This document shows positions 4,929-35,043 of a stretch of 46,040 bases of DNA, one piece after another. The position numbers were made by a program, and so were the translations under genes. Positions within the stretch are counted from its first letter, which is position 1. The number at the start of each line of letters is the position of its first letter. Origin of the DNA: Pseudomonadota bacterium (lineage in GTDB: Bacteria; Bdellovibrionota_F; JAHFAK01; JBDREC01); contig JBDREC010000015.1 in assembly GCA_043820105.1 (NCBI GenBank), positions 1 to 46,040 on the forward strand, read 5' to 3'. The notes beneath the pieces are model-generated. The model saw only the letters and a list, made by a program, of their open reading frames with translations, made no database searches and was not told where the DNA came from.

Positions 4929-6263
4929 TTACTTCCTTTTTATAATATTTACTTTTTTTCCAGTTCTTTCTTTGGCTTTATCAGTTTTTTCTCTGGGGAT
5001 TAAAACTGTGGCTTCTGGATTTGCGCCATCTGACCTTATGTTTGCACGTGTTTCAGGCTTTAAATCAATTGCAGCGGGAGAGGTGAAAAAAAGTGGAATG
5101 TCTTCTAAACTAAAATTAGGATCTGCGGGTGGTCTGCTTCTTTCAAATCTTTCCCGAACAATTGCATCCATCCTTTTTTCAGCCATAGCCACTTCATTCT
5201 CAATTAATGGATCTTGCTTTAAGTGATAAAAAGCCCAGTTAATATCACTGTTTTCACTGCCTTCTAGGTGCTGGCTTCCAAGTATGGAAAGAGTGTTTAT
5301 AGCGCACCTTTGATCCCATTTTTCAGTTTGATTTCTAGGATTTTTAGCTCTTTCAATGACCCAGGCCAAGGTTTGTGTTCTTCCTTCACCGTCAGCACTT
5401 GCAAAAACTAAGGCTATTAATTGAAAGATTCTTTGTCTTGTTGTTAATTTAATATAAGTATTTTCAAACAAATGCTCGATATTGCCTTCATTAATTAAAG
5501 ATCTGATAATATCTGCTTCAGCTTCTAGGGCATGTTTTTTCTTTAAAAGCGAATAGTCAGGGTGTCTTGATATACTATGAAAAAATTCCATTGTTTTTAA
5601 TTTAAATTCAAGATTTTCGCTTTCTATTGCTGCTTCTTTTAGGCGATTAATTAATTTAACTATATTTGCATCAGTATCTAGTTGATCTGCTTCTTCTTCT
5701 CTTAATTCTGGAAATATCTGTTCTAACCATACTCTAAAATAAATTGGTTTCACTTGAAAAAGTTTGGCAATTAATTCCCTAATTTGTGCATATTCTGCGC
5801 TTTCAAAGGCTGCTTCAGCAAGACTTATAAGGTCATAAATGGCATCCATTGCTAAGTAAATTTGATGAGCATTTTTAATTAAAACAAAATCAATTTCTGC
5901 AAGCCTTAAAAGTGAAAAATCTTCAGGGCCTGAATATCTGTCAAGTCTGTATTCATTAATTATTCCAAAAGTATTAGAATATACATTGCTAACCTCAGCT
6001 AAAACTTGAGTCGCAGATTTATAAACACTTTCAATACTACTTTCATGAGCTAGTTCACAAAGCCTTGTTATACCTCTGTGAAAATCAACAGCACTTGCAT
6101 TGTGAAAGTTGAGTGAAAGATCACTTCTTATCACTTCAATTTCAAATAATAGTAATTCTTCTTCAGTTAAAGGGCCATCGCTTGCTATACACAGATTAGA
6201 AAATGCAAGAAGTCCTAAGAAAACAAATATCATTATTGGCTTGCAAAAGTTCAGTTTCAACAT
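4929..6263 (-). CDS. Secreted alpha-helical hypothetical protein, paralog of 3505..4920
   Basis: ATG at 6263 after AAAGGA (TTG at 6266 is an alternative); signal peptide; shared motifs with neighbour; 8-bp gap suggests an operon. Confidence 0.8.
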   Translation of the reverse strand: MLKLNFCKPIMIFVFLGLLAFSNLCIASDGPLTEEELLLFEIEVIRSDLSLNFHNASAVDFHRGITRLCELAHESSIESVYKSATQVLAEVSNVYSNTFGIINEYRLDRYSGPEDFSLLRLAEIDFVLIKNAHQIYLAMDAIYDLISLAEAAFESAEYAQIRELIAKLFQVKPIYFRVWLEQIFPELREEEADQLDTDANIVKLINRLKEAAIESENLEFKLKTMEFFHSISRHPDYSLLKKKHALEAEADIIRSLINEGNIEHLFENTYIKLTTRQRIFQLIALVFASADGEGRTQTLAWVIERAKNPRNQTEKWDQRCAINTLSILGSQHLEGSENSDINWAFYHLKQDPLIENEVAMAEKRMDAIVRERFERSRPPADPNFSLEDIPLFFTSPAAIDLKPETRANIRSDGANPEATVLIPREKTDKAKERTGKKVNIIKRK

Positions 6264-28488: not shown

Positions 28489-28631
28489 ATACTTTCCTAG
28501 ATACTATTTAAATTTACATGTTTTTTTATTCTATTGAAACTTAATTGTCAAATTGACTTAATTTGTATTTGGAAATAGGGTTTTATAAAGAGTGAAGATT
28601 GGACAGAAATTTAATGTATGGAGGTTTTTTA

Positions 28632-29099
28632 TTGAAAGTTTTAGTGTTAACGGTTTCTGATAGGGCATTTATTGGAGAATATGAAGATAAATCAGGGCCT
28701 GTTATAAAGGATATAATACTTGAGAAATATAAAGAGGCTTCTGTTACAAACATAGTTATTCCAGATGAAGAGGAAGCCATATTGAAATTGCTGGAAAATC
28801 CTAAGGATTTTGATTTTATAATTACAACTGGTGGAACAGGATTAGGTCCACGAGATCTCACTCCTGAGCTAACTGAAAAAGTTTGCGATAAAGCTTTACC
28901 TGGAATAGCTGAAGCATTAAGATATGAATCCTACAAGGAAACACCAAATGCAATGTTATCAAGATCTTTTGCTGGCTTGAAAAATAAAACAATAATTGTA
29001 AATTTCCCTGGTTCAGTAAAAGCAGCTATATGTTGCACAAAAACACTTTTGCCTATTTTGGAACATGGACCTAGGATGATTAGAGGGGACGGGCATTGA
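28632..29099 (+). CDS. mogA: Molybdopterin adenylyltransferase MogA/MoaB family
   Basis: TTG at 28632 after GGAGG; TVSDR, EDKSG, IPDE, TTGGTG, RDLTPE, SR, NFPGS. Confidence 0.9.
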   Translation: MKVLVLTVSDRAFIGEYEDKSGPVIKDIILEKYKEASVTNIVIPDEEEAILKLLENPKDFDFIITTGGTGLGPRDLTPELTEKVCDKALPGIAEALRYESYKETPNAMLSRSFAGLKNKTIIVNFPGSVKAAICCTKTLLPILEHGPRMIRGDGH

Positions 29100-29938
29100 A
29101 GATAAGTGGTAAGTGGTATGTGGTAAGTGGTAAGTTTGTTTTATGGGGGCTTTTGGGTATTTTGTTGTTTTTTAGTAATGTCGTTTTTTCAACTGAGCGT
29201 CTCAAAATTGCTACAACTACCTCGCTTGATAACTCTGGGCTTTTGGAAAAGCTTATTAAACCTTTTGAAAAGGAAAATAATATAAAGATTTATGTTATTG
29301 CTGTAGGCACTGGAAAAGCCATAAAACTTGCTGAAAATGGGGATGTGGATCTTATAATGACTCATGCAAAGGAGGCTGAACTTAAGTTTATTAAAGAAGG
29401 TTATGGTGTGGAAAGAAAGGAATTTGCATATAATGACTTTGTAATCCTTGGACCCCCAAATGATCCTTCAATAATAAAAGGTTTAAATTCTGTTGATGCT
29501 TTTAGAAAAATATCAAGAGGGGGCAATATTTTCATTTCCAGAGGAGATGACTCAGGGACTCATAAAAAAGAACTAAAAATATGGGAAAATATAAAAATTA
29601 AACCAAAAGGAAAATGGTATCTTGAAGTGGGGCAGGGAATGGGAGCGTCCTTGCAAATTGCTGATCAGAAAGAAGCCTACATTTTATGTGATCGTGGAAC
29701 ATTTCTAGCTTATAAAGGAAAAATAAAGCTTGAAATTTTAGTTGAAGATTTTGTTAATTTGAAAAATCAATATTCAATTACAGCAGTAAATCCTAAGAAG
29801 CATAAACATGTAAATGCAAACCTGGTAAAAAAATTTATCGAATTTGTTACTGGAAATATTGGACAAAAAATTATTCAAGAATTTAAAATTAATAATCAAA
29901 ATTTATTTGTGCCTAATGCAATTGCTATTAGTGAATAA
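29096..29938 (+). CDS. tupA: Tungstate ABC transporter substrate-binding protein
   Basis: ATTTS motif, SGLL, VGTGKA, GDVD..MTHA, SRGDDSGTH, GQGMG, DRGT. Confidence 0.93.
   Translation: MKISGKWYVVSGKFVLWGLLGILLFFSNVVFSTERLKIATTTSLDNSGLLEKLIKPFEKENNIKIYVIAVGTGKAIKLAENGDVDLIMTHAKEAELKFIKEGYGVERKEFAYNDFVILGPPNDPSIIKGLNSVDAFRKISRGGNIFISRGDDSGTHKKELKIWENIKIKPKGKWYLEVGQGMGASLQIADQKEAYILCDRGTFLAYKGKIKLEILVEDFVNLKNQYSITAVNPKKHKHVNANLVKKFIEFVTGNIGQKIIQEFKINNQNLFVPNAIAISE
29103..29135. repeat. Heptamer array (TAAGTGG) x4.7 inside the tupA signal-peptide coding region
   Basis: Read directly; encodes SGKWYVVSGK. Confidence 0.9.
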
Positions 29939-29954
29939 TTAAACTAATTTTTGT

Positions 29955-31283
29955 TTAATAGATATTTCCAAACCTTGGATTAACAACATTATTATGAGGT
30001 GATCCAAAACTAAATGTGATATTTAAATATGCAGCTGCTTCCCATGTTGTTGCAGCTTCTCTTTCATCTAAAAGCATTTCAGTTGATGTAATATCACCCA
30101 TTGGTAAATTAAGTTGATCATGGACTGCTGATACTGATCCAGATAAACCAAAAGTTAAACCTTTTGCAACATTTATATCCAAGGAAGGATAGGCAGAAAG
30201 TCTATATTTAGAAAAATCATGAAAGTAATTAGATCCAACTAAGGATAAGCTTATGGTTCCCCATTTTTCAATAATTGATAAGCTAATTGTTAAGCTTTCT
30301 TTTAATAAAAATTCTTCTTTTTTATAATATAAGGTTTCTTCTATATAATTATTGTAAGTAGCCATTATAGAATATAAAAATGTAAACTGTCTTCTATTTG
30401 CTTCTGAATATGGGAAAACATTAAATTCTACTGCTGGTCCAACATTGGCAGTGACATTGTAATTTGAATAAGTTGAGGATTGGACATAATTCATTTGTCC
30501 AACGGCCCATCTTTTTCCAACACTCCATACCATTAGGTTGAAGTAAGAGGCAGCTAGATATTCACTTTCTACTTGTTCATCATTCTCTCCAGTTATACTT
30601 TTTGAAACATTTCCAGAGACAATAAAGTTAGTCTTGAGTTTTTCTGTAATTCTTTGAGCTTGGGCACTTCCCTTGAAATAAAATGATTTTCTTATTTGTT
30701 CAGCTGAAAAATTACCACTTAAGCCGATGCTAAAAACCCAAGAATCCCATTTGTCATCAAGTTCATTACTTAATTCTGGAAGATTGTAAGATCCAGTTAT
30801 GTATTCGCTTAATGAAGTTCTCATGGCGTATGGGATTAAACCTAATTTTAATTTTTCTACTAATCCGGATCTAATTTTTTCATCACTAGCATCTGATGGT
30901 ATGAAATAATTTATTGGAAAGTTATCACCATTGAAATTATCTTGTCCTATGAATTCTATGCTCATTTGAGTTCCCGAACCGCATTCTTGTGATGTTACAA
31001 GAATATAGATATTTGCATCTTGTCTATTTCTTACATAACTAACAAAATCAATTTGTTCTCTTATATAATCAAAGTCACAAGTTGAGCAATCAAGAAATAC
31101 AGACAACTCATCTAGGCTGAATTTGATTTCTTCTAAAGGTGATTTGTCTACTAAATCATCAACTGTTAATGCTTCTGTATCTTCACCTATTGGCAGATCT
31201 TCAGAAGATTCTATTTGATCTTGTGCGCATAATTGAATTGAAAAAATAATGATAAAAAGAATTAAAAGTTTTGAAATATTCAT
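29955..31283 (-). CDS. Putative outer-membrane beta-barrel protein with N-terminal CxxC domain
   Basis: Signal peptide; FLDCSTCDFDYIR; alternating beta-strand pattern; C-terminal FSFGS..NNVVNPRF; GGGAGG RBS. Confidence 0.75.
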   Translation of the reverse strand: MNISKLLILFIIIFSIQLCAQDQIESSEDLPIGEDTEALTVDDLVDKSPLEEIKFSLDELSVFLDCSTCDFDYIREQIDFVSYVRNRQDANIYILVTSQECGSGTQMSIEFIGQDNFNGDNFPINYFIPSDASDEKIRSGLVEKLKLGLIPYAMRTSLSEYITGSYNLPELSNELDDKWDSWVFSIGLSGNFSAEQIRKSFYFKGSAQAQRITEKLKTNFIVSGNVSKSITGENDEQVESEYLAASYFNLMVWSVGKRWAVGQMNYVQSSTYSNYNVTANVGPAVEFNVFPYSEANRRQFTFLYSIMATYNNYIEETLYYKKEEFLLKESLTISLSIIEKWGTISLSLVGSNYFHDFSKYRLSAYPSLDINVAKGLTFGLSGSVSAVHDQLNLPMGDITSTEMLLDEREAATTWEAAAYLNITFSFGSPHNNVVNPRFGNIY

Positions 31284-31334
31284 TCTGGCATCCTCCCATG
31301 CTATTCCTGCTCTCCCAAATAATATTTATCTTAT

Positions 31335-31351
31335 TGCAATAAGTATGCCAA
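31335..31351 (-). promoter_or_regulatory. Sigma-54 promoter (consensus)
   Basis: Minus strand TTGGCAT-ACTTA-TTGCA, about 50 bp upstream of ATG 31283. Confidence 0.8.
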
Positions 31352-31462
31352 TGGTCTACAATAAAATATTCAAACAATATAGGTGGTTATGATTGTTGAG
31401 GTTTTGTTTTAGGGCATAAATTATTTTTTTATTTGATAAAAAGAGATATGAATGTCACATAG

Positions 31463-32953
31463 TTAGGTTTTTGACTTAATTAAATTGGGAAGTTTATATT
31501 GGATAAAATAATCAAGATACATGTCTAATAATTTTATTTTTAGTTTTTTATCACAAGACGGATTAAAAATATCTTGATCTCTCCAAATTATTTCTGTTGG
31601 ACAACCACCACCACATAAAGGGCCAAGATTACAATCTAGGCATTCTTTTATATTGGTAATTGTCCTCTTGGACCATTTTTCAATTTCATCTTCAAATAGA
31701 GTAAAAGAATTATTAGAATATTTTCCAATTGCATATTTTTTGTTTCCAATTAAATTTTCACAATTATATAAATATCCATCAGGGTGATAAACTATTTTTG
31801 TTGAATCCATTGCAGAGTGGCAATAGATAACCATTGGTCCATGAAGGTCCTTTCTAGTTATAATACCGGGCATATCGAAGTTGAACAAAGTGGAAAGATA
31901 TGAGGCTTCTGATGAAACTATATTTGTATAAAACTTTTTATTGTTTAATTCAGGATCAGGAACTATTTTTGAATTGTATAACTTAATAATTTCAAAGATA
32001 TCCGGGATGTTTGTAATTTTTAAATTTTTGTCAAAACTTTCAAGTAATGCTGATAGTTGAAAGGTTATTTTTTTATTTTTATGCCATTTCTTTTCTTTAA
32101 TAAAACTTATAACCTCATCATATATATTAATAATATCTTTATCTATATTGTGTCTTATAGTGAGGTTTGATTGAGGTAGTTTTACAAATTCATCTATCCC
32201 ACTTACTATTTTATCAAATGAAGGTTTTCCACCGGTGTAGATTCTTTTAACATTATGTGTCGAGGCTATGCCATCAAGAGAAACTTGTAAATAGAGATTA
32301 ATATCAGGATATTCTTTGAAAAGTGGAATATAATCTATTAGATCATATCCATTTGAGTTGAATGCAAAAGTAAGCTTTTCCTCCCTGGCAAATTTGAAAT
32401 ACTTTTCAATTATTCGAATATTTTTTAATTGTAAAGGCTCTCCACCAAAAAATCTTATAAGTCTGTTATTACTTTCTTGAAATCTTTTTTTCATTATTTG
32501 AATAGAAGTTTCTACTTGGTCATCGGATAATTTTTGATGGTTCTTTCTATAAGATAACATTTCAAAACAATATGTACATCTAAAATTACATCCCCCAGTC
32601 GGAATAATAAAATTTAACAATTCAACGGGTCTTTTACGATAAAAATCCATTAGTTCAATGAATGAAGATTTTTCATCAGACTGGCTATAGAATAAATAGC
32701 CTCTTTTCACAAGACTTTTATATAGATTTCTAGGAAGTGCTTTAATGTTTCTGTTTTTAGTGGCTGTTTCGATTTGTTTCCATTCTTTTTTAGTAAAAAG
32801 GTCGATGGCACCACTAAATGTGTTTATTATTAACAAGTTAATAGGATCTGCTTTTTTTTTAATTAACCTTTTGGTTAGAAAATATCTGTTTTCATCATTC
32901 TTAGTAAATCCAACCCCAGTCCATAACTTATTATTATTTATAATTGGAATCAT
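31463..32953 (-). CDS. Radical SAM/SPASM-domain protein, putative peptide maturase
   Basis: CNFRCTYC (CxxxCxxC), FFGGEP, QVSLDG; SPASM Cx14Gx4C ... Cx2Cx5Cx3Cx15C; ~110-aa N-terminal extension. Confidence 0.93.
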   Translation of the reverse strand: MIPIINNNKLWTGVGFTKNDENRYFLTKRLIKKKADPINLLIINTFSGAIDLFTKKEWKQIETATKNRNIKALPRNLYKSLVKRGYLFYSQSDEKSSFIELMDFYRKRPVELLNFIIPTGGCNFRCTYCFEMLSYRKNHQKLSDDQVETSIQIMKKRFQESNNRLIRFFGGEPLQLKNIRIIEKYFKFAREEKLTFAFNSNGYDLIDYIPLFKEYPDINLYLQVSLDGIASTHNVKRIYTGGKPSFDKIVSGIDEFVKLPQSNLTIRHNIDKDIINIYDEVISFIKEKKWHKNKKITFQLSALLESFDKNLKITNIPDIFEIIKLYNSKIVPDPELNNKKFYTNIVSSEASYLSTLFNFDMPGIITRKDLHGPMVIYCHSAMDSTKIVYHPDGYLYNCENLIGNKKYAIGKYSNNSFTLFEDEIEKWSKRTITNIKECLDCNLGPLCGGGCPTEIIWRDQDIFNPSCDKKLKIKLLDMYLDYFIQYKLPNLIKSKT

Positions 32954-33033
32954 ATTAAATGTTACACTTTCCTTTATTAAAGTAAATTTTAGATTTTGAA
33001 CTTATCTCCAGGAGGCAAGGTTTTTTTGCTGTG

Positions 33034-33162
33034 TTAACAACAAGAGTGTCCAGCAGGGCATTCCGTTTTATCTTGTTTAGCAGATGCGGAACCCACTTTT
33101 GCTTTGGCTCTAGTTCTTTGATTAGGTTTTAGCTCTGTTTTGCTTGTTTTTCTTTTTGCCAT
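33034..33162 (-). CDS. Unannotated 42-aa putative RiPP precursor peptide
   Basis: Manual translation: MAKRKTSKTELKPNQRTRAKAKVGSASAKQDKTECPAGHSCC*; GGAGA RBS; ends 80 bp upstream of the rSAM gene on the same strand. Confidence 0.75.
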   Translation of the reverse strand: MAKRKTSKTELKPNQRTRAKAKVGSASAKQDKTECPAGHSCC

Positions 33163-33345
33163 GTTATTTCTCCATTTTAAAAAATAAATAAAATTAATAT
33201 ATTGCATCATTATAGCATAATTAGGAAGTATATGTAAAGAAAATTTGTTTGTTTTTTAATATATTAAATTTTGCATTATTTGTTGCAATTGCTAAACATT
33301 AGTGATTTAAGGATGTTTTTAATTTAATTTACATATATTCTACTT

Positions 33346-34041
33346 ATGAATTTTATCTTAGATGGACTTTTATCTGCAATAAAATTGCTAATTAGTTTTG
33401 ACAAAGAAGTATATTCTATTGCCTTTGTTTCTGTGAAAATAACCATAATTTCTACATTTATAGCTACAATCATTGGTCTTATTGTTGGATTTTTACTGGG
33501 CTTAAATAAATTCAAATACAAGAGCCTTATTGTTATTTTTCTCAATACTCTATTGGCTATTCCAACTGTCTTAATTGGTTTATTGGTATATGCCTTCATT
33601 TCCAGACAAGGTATTTTGGGACGATTTGATCTTCTTTATTCTCAATGGGCCATCATCATTGGTCAATCAATTTTGGCTTTTCCAATAATTGCATCTTTAT
33701 CTTTGGCAGCCCTTGAAAGCTTGGATAAAAGAGTTAAAAACACGCTTCTTACTTTGGGTGCAAGTAGAGTGAAGATGATATATTTTATTTTTATCGAGGG
33801 TAGATATGCATTATTAGCAAGCATCATTGCTGGATTTGGAAGGGTTTTTGCAGAAGTAGGCATTTCAATGATGCTAGGAGGGAATATAAATGGAGTAACA
33901 AGAACTATTACAACGGCAATAGCTTTTGAAACCGGTAAAGGAGAATTTGCCCTGGGTGTTGCACTTGGTTTGATTTTACTATTTATTTCCTTAATAATAA
34001 ATATGGGATTTCATTTTATTCAAAGAAGGAAGTTTGCATAA
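33346..34041 (+). CDS. tupB: Tungstate ABC transporter permease
   Basis: NTLLAIPTVLIGL, IIGQSILAFPII, AGFGRVFAEVG, GGNI, TRTITTAIAFET.KG. Confidence 0.92.
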   Translation: MNFILDGLLSAIKLLISFDKEVYSIAFVSVKITIISTFIATIIGLIVGFLLGLNKFKYKSLIVIFLNTLLAIPTVLIGLLVYAFISRQGILGRFDLLYSQWAIIIGQSILAFPIIASLSLAALESLDKRVKNTLLTLGASRVKMIYFIFIEGRYALLASIIAGFGRVFAEVGISMMLGGNINGVTRTITTAIAFETGKGEFALGVALGLILLFISLIINMGFHFIQRRKFA

Positions 34042-34044
34042 AAA

Positions 34045-35043
34045 ATGATTAAACTTATAGATTTAAAAAAAACATACTCAGACTTTGTGCTTGATATCCC
34101 TTTGTTAAAACTTGAAAAGGCAAAAGTTTATGCTTTGCTTGGTCATAATGGATCTGGTAAATCAACCTTACTTAAGTTAATTGCTTTACTTGAAAATAAA
34201 GATCAGGGGGATATTTATTATCAGGAAAATAAGCTTAATAAAGAATCATATTTTGAGACTAGGAAAAAAATTCATATTGTAGCTGAAGATCCTTTCTTAT
34301 TTTCTACTTCTGTATATAAGAATTTATCAGCAGGTCTTTGGTGTCATCGAATTGAAAAGAAAATATGGAAAAATGAAATCAACAAGGTTCTAAAGATTGT
34401 TAAACTTGAGGACTTTGAAAAAAGAAATGCTAATACTTTATCCCGTGGAGAAAGACAGAGAATTGCTATTGCCAGAGCTTTGCTTCTAGAACCAGAGGTT
34501 TTGCTCCTTGATGAACCATTTGCGAATATTGATAAAAACAGTATGCATTCTCTTGGTGTTTTAATTGAGGATTTAAAAAACACTTATAATATGTGCATTG
34601 TCTTTTCAACTCATGATTTTATTCAAGCTCACTGTCTGGCTGATAATATATTTACCATGGTTAATGGCAAAATATTTGATTCAGATCCTGAAAACATTTT
34701 TCATGGACTTAGTATGCAAGAAAATGGAAAAAAGATTTTTAGGATAGGGGAATTGTCTTATATAGATTTAGGAAATAAGAATGTAAACTCATCCTTAGTT
34801 TCCCTATATCCTGAAAAAATATATATAAATAATAAGGATGAAAATAGAATTTTCGATAACCAATTTGTAGGTATAATTGAAAAAATACAGCTTGAACATG
34901 AAAAAGCCAGATTAACGCTTAATATTAACCAGGATTTCAGACTAATTTCAATCATGAAAATCTCTGAATATGAGAAACTATCCCTAAAACCAAATCTAAC
35001 AGTAGACATTTCCTTTTCATCAAAAGATGTAAAAATATTATAA
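34045..35043 (+). CDS. tupC: Tungstate ABC transporter ATPase with TOBE-like C-terminus
   Basis: Walker A GHNGSGKST, LSRGERQR, LLLDEP, STH; follows tupB. Confidence 0.85.
   Translation: MIKLIDLKKTYSDFVLDIPLLKLEKAKVYALLGHNGSGKSTLLKLIALLENKDQGDIYYQENKLNKESYFETRKKIHIVAEDPFLFSTSVYKNLSAGLWCHRIEKKIWKNEINKVLKIVKLEDFEKRNANTLSRGERQRIAIARALLLEPEVLLLDEPFANIDKNSMHSLGVLIEDLKNTYNMCIVFSTHDFIQAHCLADNIFTMVNGKIFDSDPENIFHGLSMQENGKKIFRIGELSYIDLGNKNVNSSLVSLYPEKIYINNKDENRIFDNQFVGIIEKIQLEHEKARLTLNINQDFRLISIMKISEYEKLSLKPNLTVDISFSSKDVKIL

Follow-up and report, generated by a model that had tools for sequence, protein, structure and literature searches.

A conserved pair of a short peptide ending in GHxCC and a radical SAM/SPASM maturase, a candidate RiPP system found in a sparsely sampled bacterial lineage

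Peptide maturases of the radical S-adenosylmethionine (SAM)/SPASM type have repeatedly been a source of new bond types. In sactipeptides the donor cysteines lie N-terminal to their acceptors and a hairpin of S-to-C-alpha bridges is formed. SCIFF precursors are of the six-Cys-in-forty-five type. [quoted passage not shown] NxxcB links the C-beta of Asn to Cys. We describe here a pair of genes found in a stretch of 46,040 nucleotides, which we will call the window: contig JBDREC010000015.1, positions 1 to 46,040, from the assembly GCA_043820105.1 of a Pseudomonadota bacterium (Bdellovibrionota_F). One gene codes for a peptide of 42 amino acids which ends in two cysteines, the other for a radical SAM/SPASM enzyme of 496 amino acids. 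The pair is a new small precursor/maturase family within this well-known kind of RiPP system, and is of relevance to the RiPP and radical SAM field. It is very likely that the cassette is a real, uncharacterised peptide natural-product or cofactor system, and we are highly confident that its two genes are a cognate precursor/maturase pair.

The peptide gene occupies positions 33162..33034 of the minus strand and encodes MAKRKTSKTELKPNQRTRAKAKVGSASAKQDKTECPAGHSCC, 42 residues followed by a stop. An earlier note on this DNA had pointed to this open reading frame (ORF), with a GGAGA ribosome-binding site and a gap of 80 bp to a co-oriented enzyme. The sequence agrees with the first part, as GGAGA can be read directly at 33169..33173 (minus strand) with the ATG 6 nt further on, and the coordinates with the second, as 33034 is the last position of the peptide stop and 32953 the first of the enzyme gene. 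We scanned the whole genome (3,809,486 bases) in six frames for GH.CC followed by a stop and found a single match, the window peptide itself; since the motif is single in the genome, this ORF is more than a chance occurrence. Among 180 loci the same scan gives three matches: the window copy, an ORF in locus L021 and a 13-residue fragment in L149.

The peptide belongs to a small family. A profile prepared from the window and L021 peptides found 8 proteins among 20 candidates in a word-indexed collection, and all eight end in GH(D/S)CC. An index-free profile search over 1.84 billion representatives gave nine proteins at E <= 0.001. Seven of them are short peptides, again all ending in GH(D/S)CC, and they include four new ones which diverge further (...GPGIGHDCC, ...QCSAGHDCC, ...APAGHDCC and ...ECPEIGHDCC). 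The remaining two are long proteins (1434 and 403 aa), which match only the Lys-rich part of the leader, in many stretches; they are excluded from the family count.

When ten peptides are aligned, P13, K29, G38, H39, C41 and C42 are invariant, and S9, N14, D27, A28, G31, V33 and D40 are conserved in at least 90% of them. The window peptide is the most divergent member, with 32–39% identity to the others; it alone has Ser at position 40, which is Asp in the other nine. The C-terminal motif remains invariant in the ten sequences while the leader diverges. Most members have DAKG(L/I)V(Q/E) before the core GHxCC, which closes the peptide. In the window this core corresponds to G38-H39-S40-C41-C42 (33037..33051, minus strand), the presumed site of modification. 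Leaders share KPN, within the family motif (E/S)-x-(K/I)-P-N, which in the window is E10-L-K-P-N14 (33121..33135, minus strand) and is a predicted contact of the RRE. Members of the family carry two or three Cys, the window peptide three. The earlier note had described a Cx5CC end: this is correct for the window sequence, but C35 is found in only three of the ten peptides, so that the conserved motif is GHxCC and not Cx5CC. The acceptors which it considered (D31/T33/E34) are not conserved in the family. With E limited to 0.01, neither NCBIfam nor Pfam has a model that the window peptide matches. Three peptides of the family, compared with NCBIfam at E up to 10, gave a single weak match to a lipoprotein model (E 0.062).

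We have seen the pairing of peptide and enzyme in the DNA at three loci: the window, L021 and L182/L190 of genome G152. In the window the peptide is upstream of the enzyme. In L021 an ORF ending in ...DAKGLVQASAGHDCC lies 112–142 bp downstream of an enzyme with 49% identity, and in G152 the peptide is also found downstream. The order of the genes is therefore variable, upstream in the window and downstream in the loci of Chlorobia. The short ORFs expected by the earlier note upstream of the homologous enzymes do exist as GH(D/S)CC peptides which adjoin the enzyme, but on the downstream side in Chlorobia. A peptide of the L021 type (99% identity) is also present in genome G041, on a contig which bears the 3' part of the enzyme gene. 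In Chlorobium/Prosthecochloris we found five pairs of adjacent NCBI accessions, each of a peptide and an enzyme: MBL6957208/9, MCW8797100/1, MCW8820082/3, MBC8523813/4 and NEX14917/8. An indirect link is given by 16 cases in which a member of a peptide cluster and one of an enzyme cluster share an identical length of the longest contig (22814, 83251, 2714, 90648, 93373, 122152, 534240, 95108, 29770, 352907, 3479, 12211, 5133, 7042, 3246 and 3575). Through the values 3246 and 3575 the divergent peptides P0190 and P0193 are connected with the clusters of the enzymes P0183/P0009 and P0008. By cluster matching no partner was found for the enzymes P0006, P0007, P0010 and P0009 itself, nor for the peptides P0121, P0122, P0125, P0126, P0127, P0191 and P0192, mostly on short contigs; in the P0121 cluster, members P0133, P0137, P0138, P0141 and P0144 have no match.

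A peculiarity of G041, a metagenome-assembled genome (MAG) labelled Chlorobium phaeobacteroides, is that its maturase gene is broken after codon ~316 (L101 6946–7082 and L187 2042–2179). The homology to the intact L021 gene ends at the same point on two contig ends, beyond which there is unrelated DNA with a shared TTGATCGATT string. The NCBI records of this group show the enzyme as separate proteins of 316/342 and 180 aa. The maturase system may have been inactivated by an insertion in the lineage of G041.

The enzyme gene is found at 31463..32953 on the minus strand. Its sequence carries everything that had been read in it earlier: CxxxCxxC, GGEP, a seven-Cys SPASM domain and an N-terminal extension of ~110 residues. 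The radical SAM motif C122-x3-C126-x2-C129, followed by F130 (32567..32590, minus strand), is invariant in alignments of 11 and 62 sequences, and the SAM-binding motif G170-G-E-P173 is invariant in the 62. The SPASM domain (31553..31822, minus strand) has the complete pattern C378-x14-G393-x4-C398 / C438-x2-C441-x5-C447-x3-C451 / C467, and its seven Cys are invariant in both alignments. Pfam PF04055 gives 59.6 bits (cut-off 29.5) and TIGR04085, the SPASM model, 50.6 bits (cut-off 27). A model of the enzyme calculated with AlphaFold2 from 62 sequences has a predicted local distance difference test (pLDDT) of 92.5 and a predicted template modelling score (pTM) of 0.90. The nearest structure is CteB: in Foldseek it comes first (5WHY with E 4.1e-15 over 488 columns; 5WGG with template modelling scores, TM, of 0.58/0.64), followed by anSME, SuiB, TigE and ChlB, and it is also first in a profile search of PDB sequences (E 9.3e-21).

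About 112 residues precede the radical SAM core. They contain an RRE-like domain at approximately residues 24–107 (32633..32884, minus strand), delimited from predicted secondary structure and VIA-align. The AlphaFold2 model has strands 30–34, 39–44 and 49–54 and helices 55–66, 75–83 and 91–106, after which the radical SAM barrel starts. When the 112 residues are modelled alone, the pLDDT is 81, with residues 1–19 below 50. Foldseek with this domain alone has no match at E <= 0.001; TigE, TbiB1 and LynD head its list. Pfam PqqD has no match on the window enzyme. VIA-align places TigE residues 3–110 first with Z 7.0 (root-mean-square deviation 2.8, 93 aligned), then TbiB1 (4.9), a lasso-peptide B1 protein (4.9), ThcOx (4.8), TbtB (4.8), MibB (4.6) and the RRE of PbtF (4.2). 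PqqD (4.0), MccB (3.9), MadB (3.8), NisB (3.8), McbBCD (3.5), CteB 1–87 (3.0) and SuiB (2.7) are found further down. Although these Z values are middling, the titles of 11 among the 15 best rows are those of proteins of RiPP biosynthesis, and for this reason we take the N-terminal domain of the model as an RRE, in agreement with what the earlier note had expected.

Close relatives of the enzyme are few. A search of 5.8 billion clustered proteins gave nine of them (P0002–P0010) with 47–53% identity; the next match has 33% and the rest at most 31%. Altogether 119 proteins were found at E <= 0.001 among 7550 candidates. A quick maximum-likelihood tree was prepared with 42 rows: the 10 close relatives, 10 distant homologues taken from the loci and 22 further distant ones, picked by hand from the 119 matches; L109 was omitted, as its full gene was not found by the ORF filter. 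The GHxCC enzymes form one clade of 10 rows, with a support of 100 in the Shimodaira–Hasegawa-like approximate likelihood ratio test (SH-aLRT) and a stem of 0.81 substitutions per site.

The interaction of both partners was also modelled. Enzyme and peptide were each supplied as their own alignment, in three runs with three controls. The interface score (ipSAE) is 0.78 (0.77–0.79 in the runs), while the controls have 0.05, 0.00 and 0.00; in the benchmark 58 of 80 solved complexes attain the mark, as do 2 of 110 mismatched pairs. Between the runs 54% or more of the contacts coincide, and the partner has a pLDDT of 54 or more. The contacts with the lowest error are those of peptide residues 9–14, which include ELKPN, with enzyme residues 10–14, 88–89, 93, 97, 100–101 and 104–105. 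The conserved leader motif is thus placed on the RRE, on helix 88–107 and segment 8–15. Further confident contacts extend up to peptide residue 35 and involve enzyme residues 165, 221, 369–372 and 400. Residue 35 is predicted near 369–372 and N400, which comes after the SPASM Cys398. Binding of the leader to the RRE is supported by these models. The earlier note had proposed that the peptide is the substrate of the enzyme; this is supported by the conserved pairing, the RRE fold and a co-fold which passes its controls.

The pair belongs to no curated equivalog, and neither partner is covered by an NCBIfam or Pfam family. The best hidden Markov model (HMM) matches of the window enzyme are maturases of Cys-rich peptides: TIGR04463 (121.3 bits, cut-off 525), CefB (NF038107; 113.6 bits, cut-off 600), the geopeptide model (106 bits) and PapB (NF047865; 99.3 bits, cut-off 340). 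Lower scores are those of anSME (77 bits, cut-off 349), the SCIFF maturase (TIGR03974; 72.6 bits, cut-off 425), HxsB (TIGR03978; 65.5 bits, cut-off 370) and YhhB (NF041707; 61.2 bits, cut-off 445). Four relatives of the enzyme score like the window enzyme on the curated models. TIGR04463 ('rSAM_vs_C_rich') and CefB are the top-scoring models for all of them, with 107–129 bits; the alignments begin inside the N-terminal domain, and the substrates are short Cys-rich peptides to judge by the model names. The scores are however only about a quarter of the cut-offs, and the window peptide matches no model.

Among the systems of known structure, CteB (PDB 5WGG, 5WHY), which is of the SCIFF type, shares with our enzyme the RRE, the radical SAM core and the seven-Cys SPASM domain. 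Both have seven and not eight conserved Cys for the auxiliary clusters, which in CteB leaves the Aux I site open, and in both a Cys-containing peptide is encoded beside the enzyme. On the other hand the identity in the structural alignment is only 17–18%. In place of the six-Cys pattern the peptide has 2–3 Cys, right at its C-terminal end, and its acceptor would be N-terminal to them. To our knowledge an invariant His is not a feature of SCIFF peptides. The topology differs also from that of sactipeptides, as the invariant Cys are here the last two residues and no acceptor can follow them. The topology which we propose, with the acceptor N-terminal to the donor Cys and at a short distance, is similar to that of the NxxcB-type beta-thioether maturases, as far as a comparison by description only allows; in our case the motif is GHxCC at the C-terminus. 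NxxcB is mentioned among the known families in parts of PMC11851443 and PMC10288494. Like mycofactocin and PQQ, the window pair has no exporter beside it. The differences are the absence of a separate MftB/PqqD-type RRE, another core motif and the absence of accessory genes, which were sought among the window neighbours tupA, an outer-membrane-like paralogue and tupB/C. The MftC and PqqE equivalogs are not among the best 25 of the 63 NCBIfam families matched at E <= 0.01. Enzyme and peptide present every architectural feature which we examined for RRE-dependent radical SAM/SPASM RiPP pairs, with the binding of the leader as a prediction. Full-text literature searches with the motif strings gave only unrelated matches, for example primers and acronyms, and those with the topic gave nothing on the family; supplements of surveys, such as that of PMC10288494, lie outside this search and may list the family.

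The mechanism that we consider for the cassette is as follows. The 42-aa product would be a precursor peptide with a basic leader. The RRE of the adjoining enzyme would bind the (E/S)-x-(K/I)-P-N motif of this leader, and the Gly-His-(Ser/Asp)-Cys-Cys end would be fed into the active site. There the chemistry of the 5'-deoxyadenosyl radical would make an intramolecular crosslink, while an Aux I cluster, one coordination site of which is free, holds the thiolate of one terminal Cys. The result would be a thioether between a terminal Cys and a carbon of a residue just upstream: since the invariant Cys are the last two residues, the acceptor can only precede the donor Cys. The modification at GHxCC, the thioether bond and the open Aux I site are all inferred by us. 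For the last of these, only seven Cys are invariant for the two auxiliary clusters in the 11- and 62-sequence alignments. In CteB the open Aux I site is ligated by a Cys of the substrate, whereas the auxiliary clusters of anSME, SuiB and PqqE are fully ligated, in SuiB by a linker Cys and in PqqE by Asp, as it is described in parts of PMC6231123. Six positions of CteB face the active site (F112, F152, T186, S210, H363 and Q364, given in a part of PMC10288494). We mapped them by hand onto the window enzyme and its relatives from the alignment of the PDB profile search. F112 and F152 correspond to F130 and F169. T186 is T in the relatives and N199 in the window, S210 is S225 in the window and T in the relatives, H363 is E399 in the window and L in the relatives, and Q364 is N400. 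Three to four of the six positions agree. From the count of seven Cys, this agreement and the best HMM matches, a Cys thioether is the one outcome that we find most likely, and we give a two-gene RiPP-type cassette with a thioether at GHxCC a little less than an even chance.

Several observations weigh against such a thioether. The curated models of thioether maturases are all far below their cut-offs. The last two of the six CteB positions are H-Q in CteB and E/L-N here. Aux I could be filled by a ligand other than Cys, as by Asp in PqqE. The donor Cys of sactipeptides and SCIFF-type peptides is N-terminal to the acceptor, an arrangement impossible in our peptides. A plain thioether gives no role to the invariant His. 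In the co-fold the last seven residues of the peptide, with H39, C41 and C42, are outside the confidently placed contacts. Complexes of maturase and leader have been solved for CteB, SuiB and ChlB, and part of the favourable co-fold may reflect likeness to them. Finally, there is no conserved protease or exporter beside the pair.

The invariant His leads to the alternative that survives best, though it is unlikely in our opinion: with the same pair of genes, the enzyme would crosslink His39, either by a C-C bond of cyclophane type which joins the imidazole with the Cys41 beta-carbon in the aromatic-X-X motif H39-S40-C41, or by a C-S or C-N bond between His and Cys. The two Cys would then be a partner or an anchor. 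His39 is invariant in the ten aligned peptides, and in the H-S-C triplet of the window peptide the H and C positions are invariant in the family. SPASM enzymes which form cyclophanes on aromatic residues are known, and their models YhhB, FxsB (TIGR04269), GrrM (TIGR04261) and HxsB match our enzyme partially, with at most 61–66 bits, but these scores are below those of the maturases of Cys-rich peptides. Cyclophane formers and the His-Tyr link of dynobactin are discussed in parts of PMC10288494. Peptides which adjoin distant homologues of the enzyme (25–29% identity) also carry an aromatic residue just before a vicinal Cys pair. However their enzymes and the GHxCC clade do not form one clade in the tree, so that the shared motif may be convergent or coincidental and the argument is suggestive only. 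The spacing is also different: in Clostridia the aromatic residue is directly before CC, while here there is one residue in between.

A wider possibility, which we consider doubtful, is a new class of RiPP in which the enzyme fuses the invariant His with the vicinal C-terminal Cys into a compact imidazole/thiol(ate) ring system. Since no exporter or protease accompanies the pair, the product of such a class would stay in the cell; it would be a peptide that binds metal or resembles a redox cofactor, and no antibiotic. It is equally doubtful that the class would be one of anaerobes of sulfidic habitats, with the Trp/Tyr-(x)-Cys-Cys families as variations of the same aromatic-to-Cys-Cys chemistry. 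Whatever the bond, an acceptor N-terminal to the donor Cys, an invariant His and vicinal Cys make a simple copy of the rings of sactipeptides and ranthipeptides unlikely, and the topology of the family makes new chemistry plausible.

It is also improbable that the enzyme modifies the peptide with no crosslink at all. It could act by oxidative decarboxylation of the C-terminus, as MftC does on a C-terminal Tyr, by oxidising Cys to formylglycine in the manner of anSME, or by epimerisation. A small thiol/imidazole peptide would result, an intracellular metal ligand or redox cofactor. All members carry the motif at their extreme C-terminus, as mycofactocin does its modified motif, and anSME is the second-best structural match (TIGR03942, 77 bits). 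No exporter or protease is conserved beside the pair, and the window cassette is placed within a cluster of genes for tungstate uptake and molybdopterin. Yet L021 and L190 lack the tungstate context, and the accessory genes known from cofactor pathways are all absent. The anSME and MoaA-type models score lower than the peptide crosslinkers, and the models of mycofactocin and PQQ enzymes are absent from the best 25 matched families given above. Should the product prove to be a metal or redox ligand that acts within the cell, the very short list of peptide-derived cofactors would become longer.

It is very improbable that the small ORF is not the substrate but is spurious, or the gene of a small basic protein with a role of its own, and that the enzyme acts on a product encoded elsewhere: the leader is unusually basic, but the peptide is kept beside enzymes with only 47–53% identity while the gene order changes between loci, its C-terminal motif is invariant with a divergent leader, adjacent accessions and matching contigs link both genes, the co-fold passes its controls and the motif is unique in the genome. 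The preferred thioether, like its alternatives, can be tested, as the family is small and clean: it requires two genes, a substrate of 40–60 aa and a core of five residues.

The peptides which adjoin the distant homologues form several groups. In Clostridia (L106, L108, L111, L122 and L138, at ~5400–5870 on the plus strand, from Alkaliphilus, Fusibacter, Brassicibacter, Tissierella and Defluviitaleaceae) they have ~38 aa, start with MKMKPII... (MKLTPII... in L138) and end in (Q/H/M)(W/Y)CC(A/E)(C/W): three loci have ...QWCCAC, one ...HYCCAC and one ...MWCCEW. They are upstream of maturases with 28–29% identity; in L111 both peptide and enzyme are below every NCBIfam cut-off. A second group has (G/D)WSCC, with the sequences ...DWSCC... 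in L022 (5710–5919), ...AGWSCC... in L023 (14–241) and ...GDWSCC... in L024 (1603–1908), upstream of maturases with 25–28% identity. In L022 and L023 the cassette adjoins one or two genes of B12-binding radical SAM enzymes. The WSCC loci are an uncurated system in their own right. In Bacillus (L102 4459–4623, L144 and L109) we find peptides with CC repeats, in which Phe is beside some of the Cys pairs; the L102 peptide ends in CFNCSICCDNCCFNCCFQI and is upstream of two tandem SPASM maturases of 460 and 484 aa.

These aromatic-(x)-CC families have the same enzyme architecture as the GHxCC pair, with 25–29% identity, a vicinal Cys pair near the C-terminus of the peptide and, in the members scanned, scores below every curated cut-off. 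They differ by their separate clades in the tree, their leaders and the additional B12-radical SAM genes of the WSCC loci. A single 'aromatic-CC' superclade is unsupported by the quick tree. We found no characterised member of these families in the literature searched.

We will now consider the start and promoter of the window peptide. The best promoter-like match in the region 29800..33500 is TTTACA-18-TGcTATAAT, with a TG extension, at 33238..33209 on the minus strand. It agrees in 11 of 12 positions and the peptide ATG is 47 bp downstream. It is only a match to the consensus and no proof, as promoter-like sites are not enriched in this region (25, while the mean of shuffled sequences is 23.3). 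The site overlaps an alternative upstream ATG at 33210, which corresponds to the 58-aa form given by the mechanical ORF list; this overlap favours the shorter form, so that the peptide probably has 42 and not 58 aa. The 121-nt stretch from the peptide to the enzyme folds no better than shuffled sequences (z 0.29). No minus-strand terminator-like site was found in 29800..33500, and in the whole window no Rfam family attains its gathering score.

In the window, the peptide, the maturase and a secreted protein of 442 aa form a block of 3.4 kb on the strand opposite to a tungstate-uptake/molybdopterin cluster (28599–35043), which is split by it. The cluster contains a MogA/MoaB-like gene (28599–29099), tupA (29096–29938), tupB (33346–34041) and tupC (34045–35043); the block lies between tupA and tupB/tupC, and the peptide and tupB diverge across 183 bp. 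L021 has as neighbours a DUF3375 protein, an unassigned ORF of 244 aa whose start resembles a signal peptide, a methyltransferase and a PrsW-family intramembrane protease, which is ~0.9 kb beyond the peptide on the opposite strand. In L190 there are a glycerol kinase, an OmpA protein, an SpvB-domain ORF and a DUF6603 protein of 984 aa. The last two are just downstream of the peptide (L190 8542–13598) and are not common to the other loci. The window, L021 and L190 share no neighbouring gene family. NCBIfam and Pfam scans of the window agree with the earlier note that no protease or exporter adjoins the pair, and neither is found in L190. The surroundings are different in every case, which suggests a mobile, self-contained function.

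Other features of the window locus were considered and set aside. A link of the cassette to tungstate is rejected: L021 and L190 have no such context, and the six nearest genomes, to which the split tup operon would be compared, gave no TupB at E <= 1e-20. The base composition speaks against a genomic island, as GC is 0.27–0.34 both inside and outside the cassette. The 442-aa ORF is rejected as a third component, since it has no homologue in L021, L101, L181, L182, L183 or L187. This protein (29955–31283, minus strand) has a signal-peptide-like start, a C-terminal ...GNIY and no Pfam or NCBIfam match. Four further paralogous matches with 33–38% identity are found on contigs C111 and C96 of the window genome (G000). 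It may be an uncharacterised outer-membrane family expanded in this lineage.

The distribution of the family is sparse and patchy. It is found in two Chlorobia genomes of 138, in the deep delta-proteobacteria-like lineage of the window and in lineages known from metagenomes. The two Chlorobia genomes with a close homologue are G041 and G152; three more have only distant ones (E ~1e-52 to 1e-54). No orthologue of the enzyme was found among 40 relatives of the window genome, where the best match has E 1.1e-12 and 27% identity. The host itself belongs to a sparsely sampled deep lineage: only three genomes are classed with it and its GC content is ~29%. No protein in the collection of 5.8 billion has more than 68% identity to the RpoB of the window genome (contig C86, L189), and those of its near matches which have names come from MAGs of Myxococcota, Bdellovibrionota and Desulfuromonadales type.

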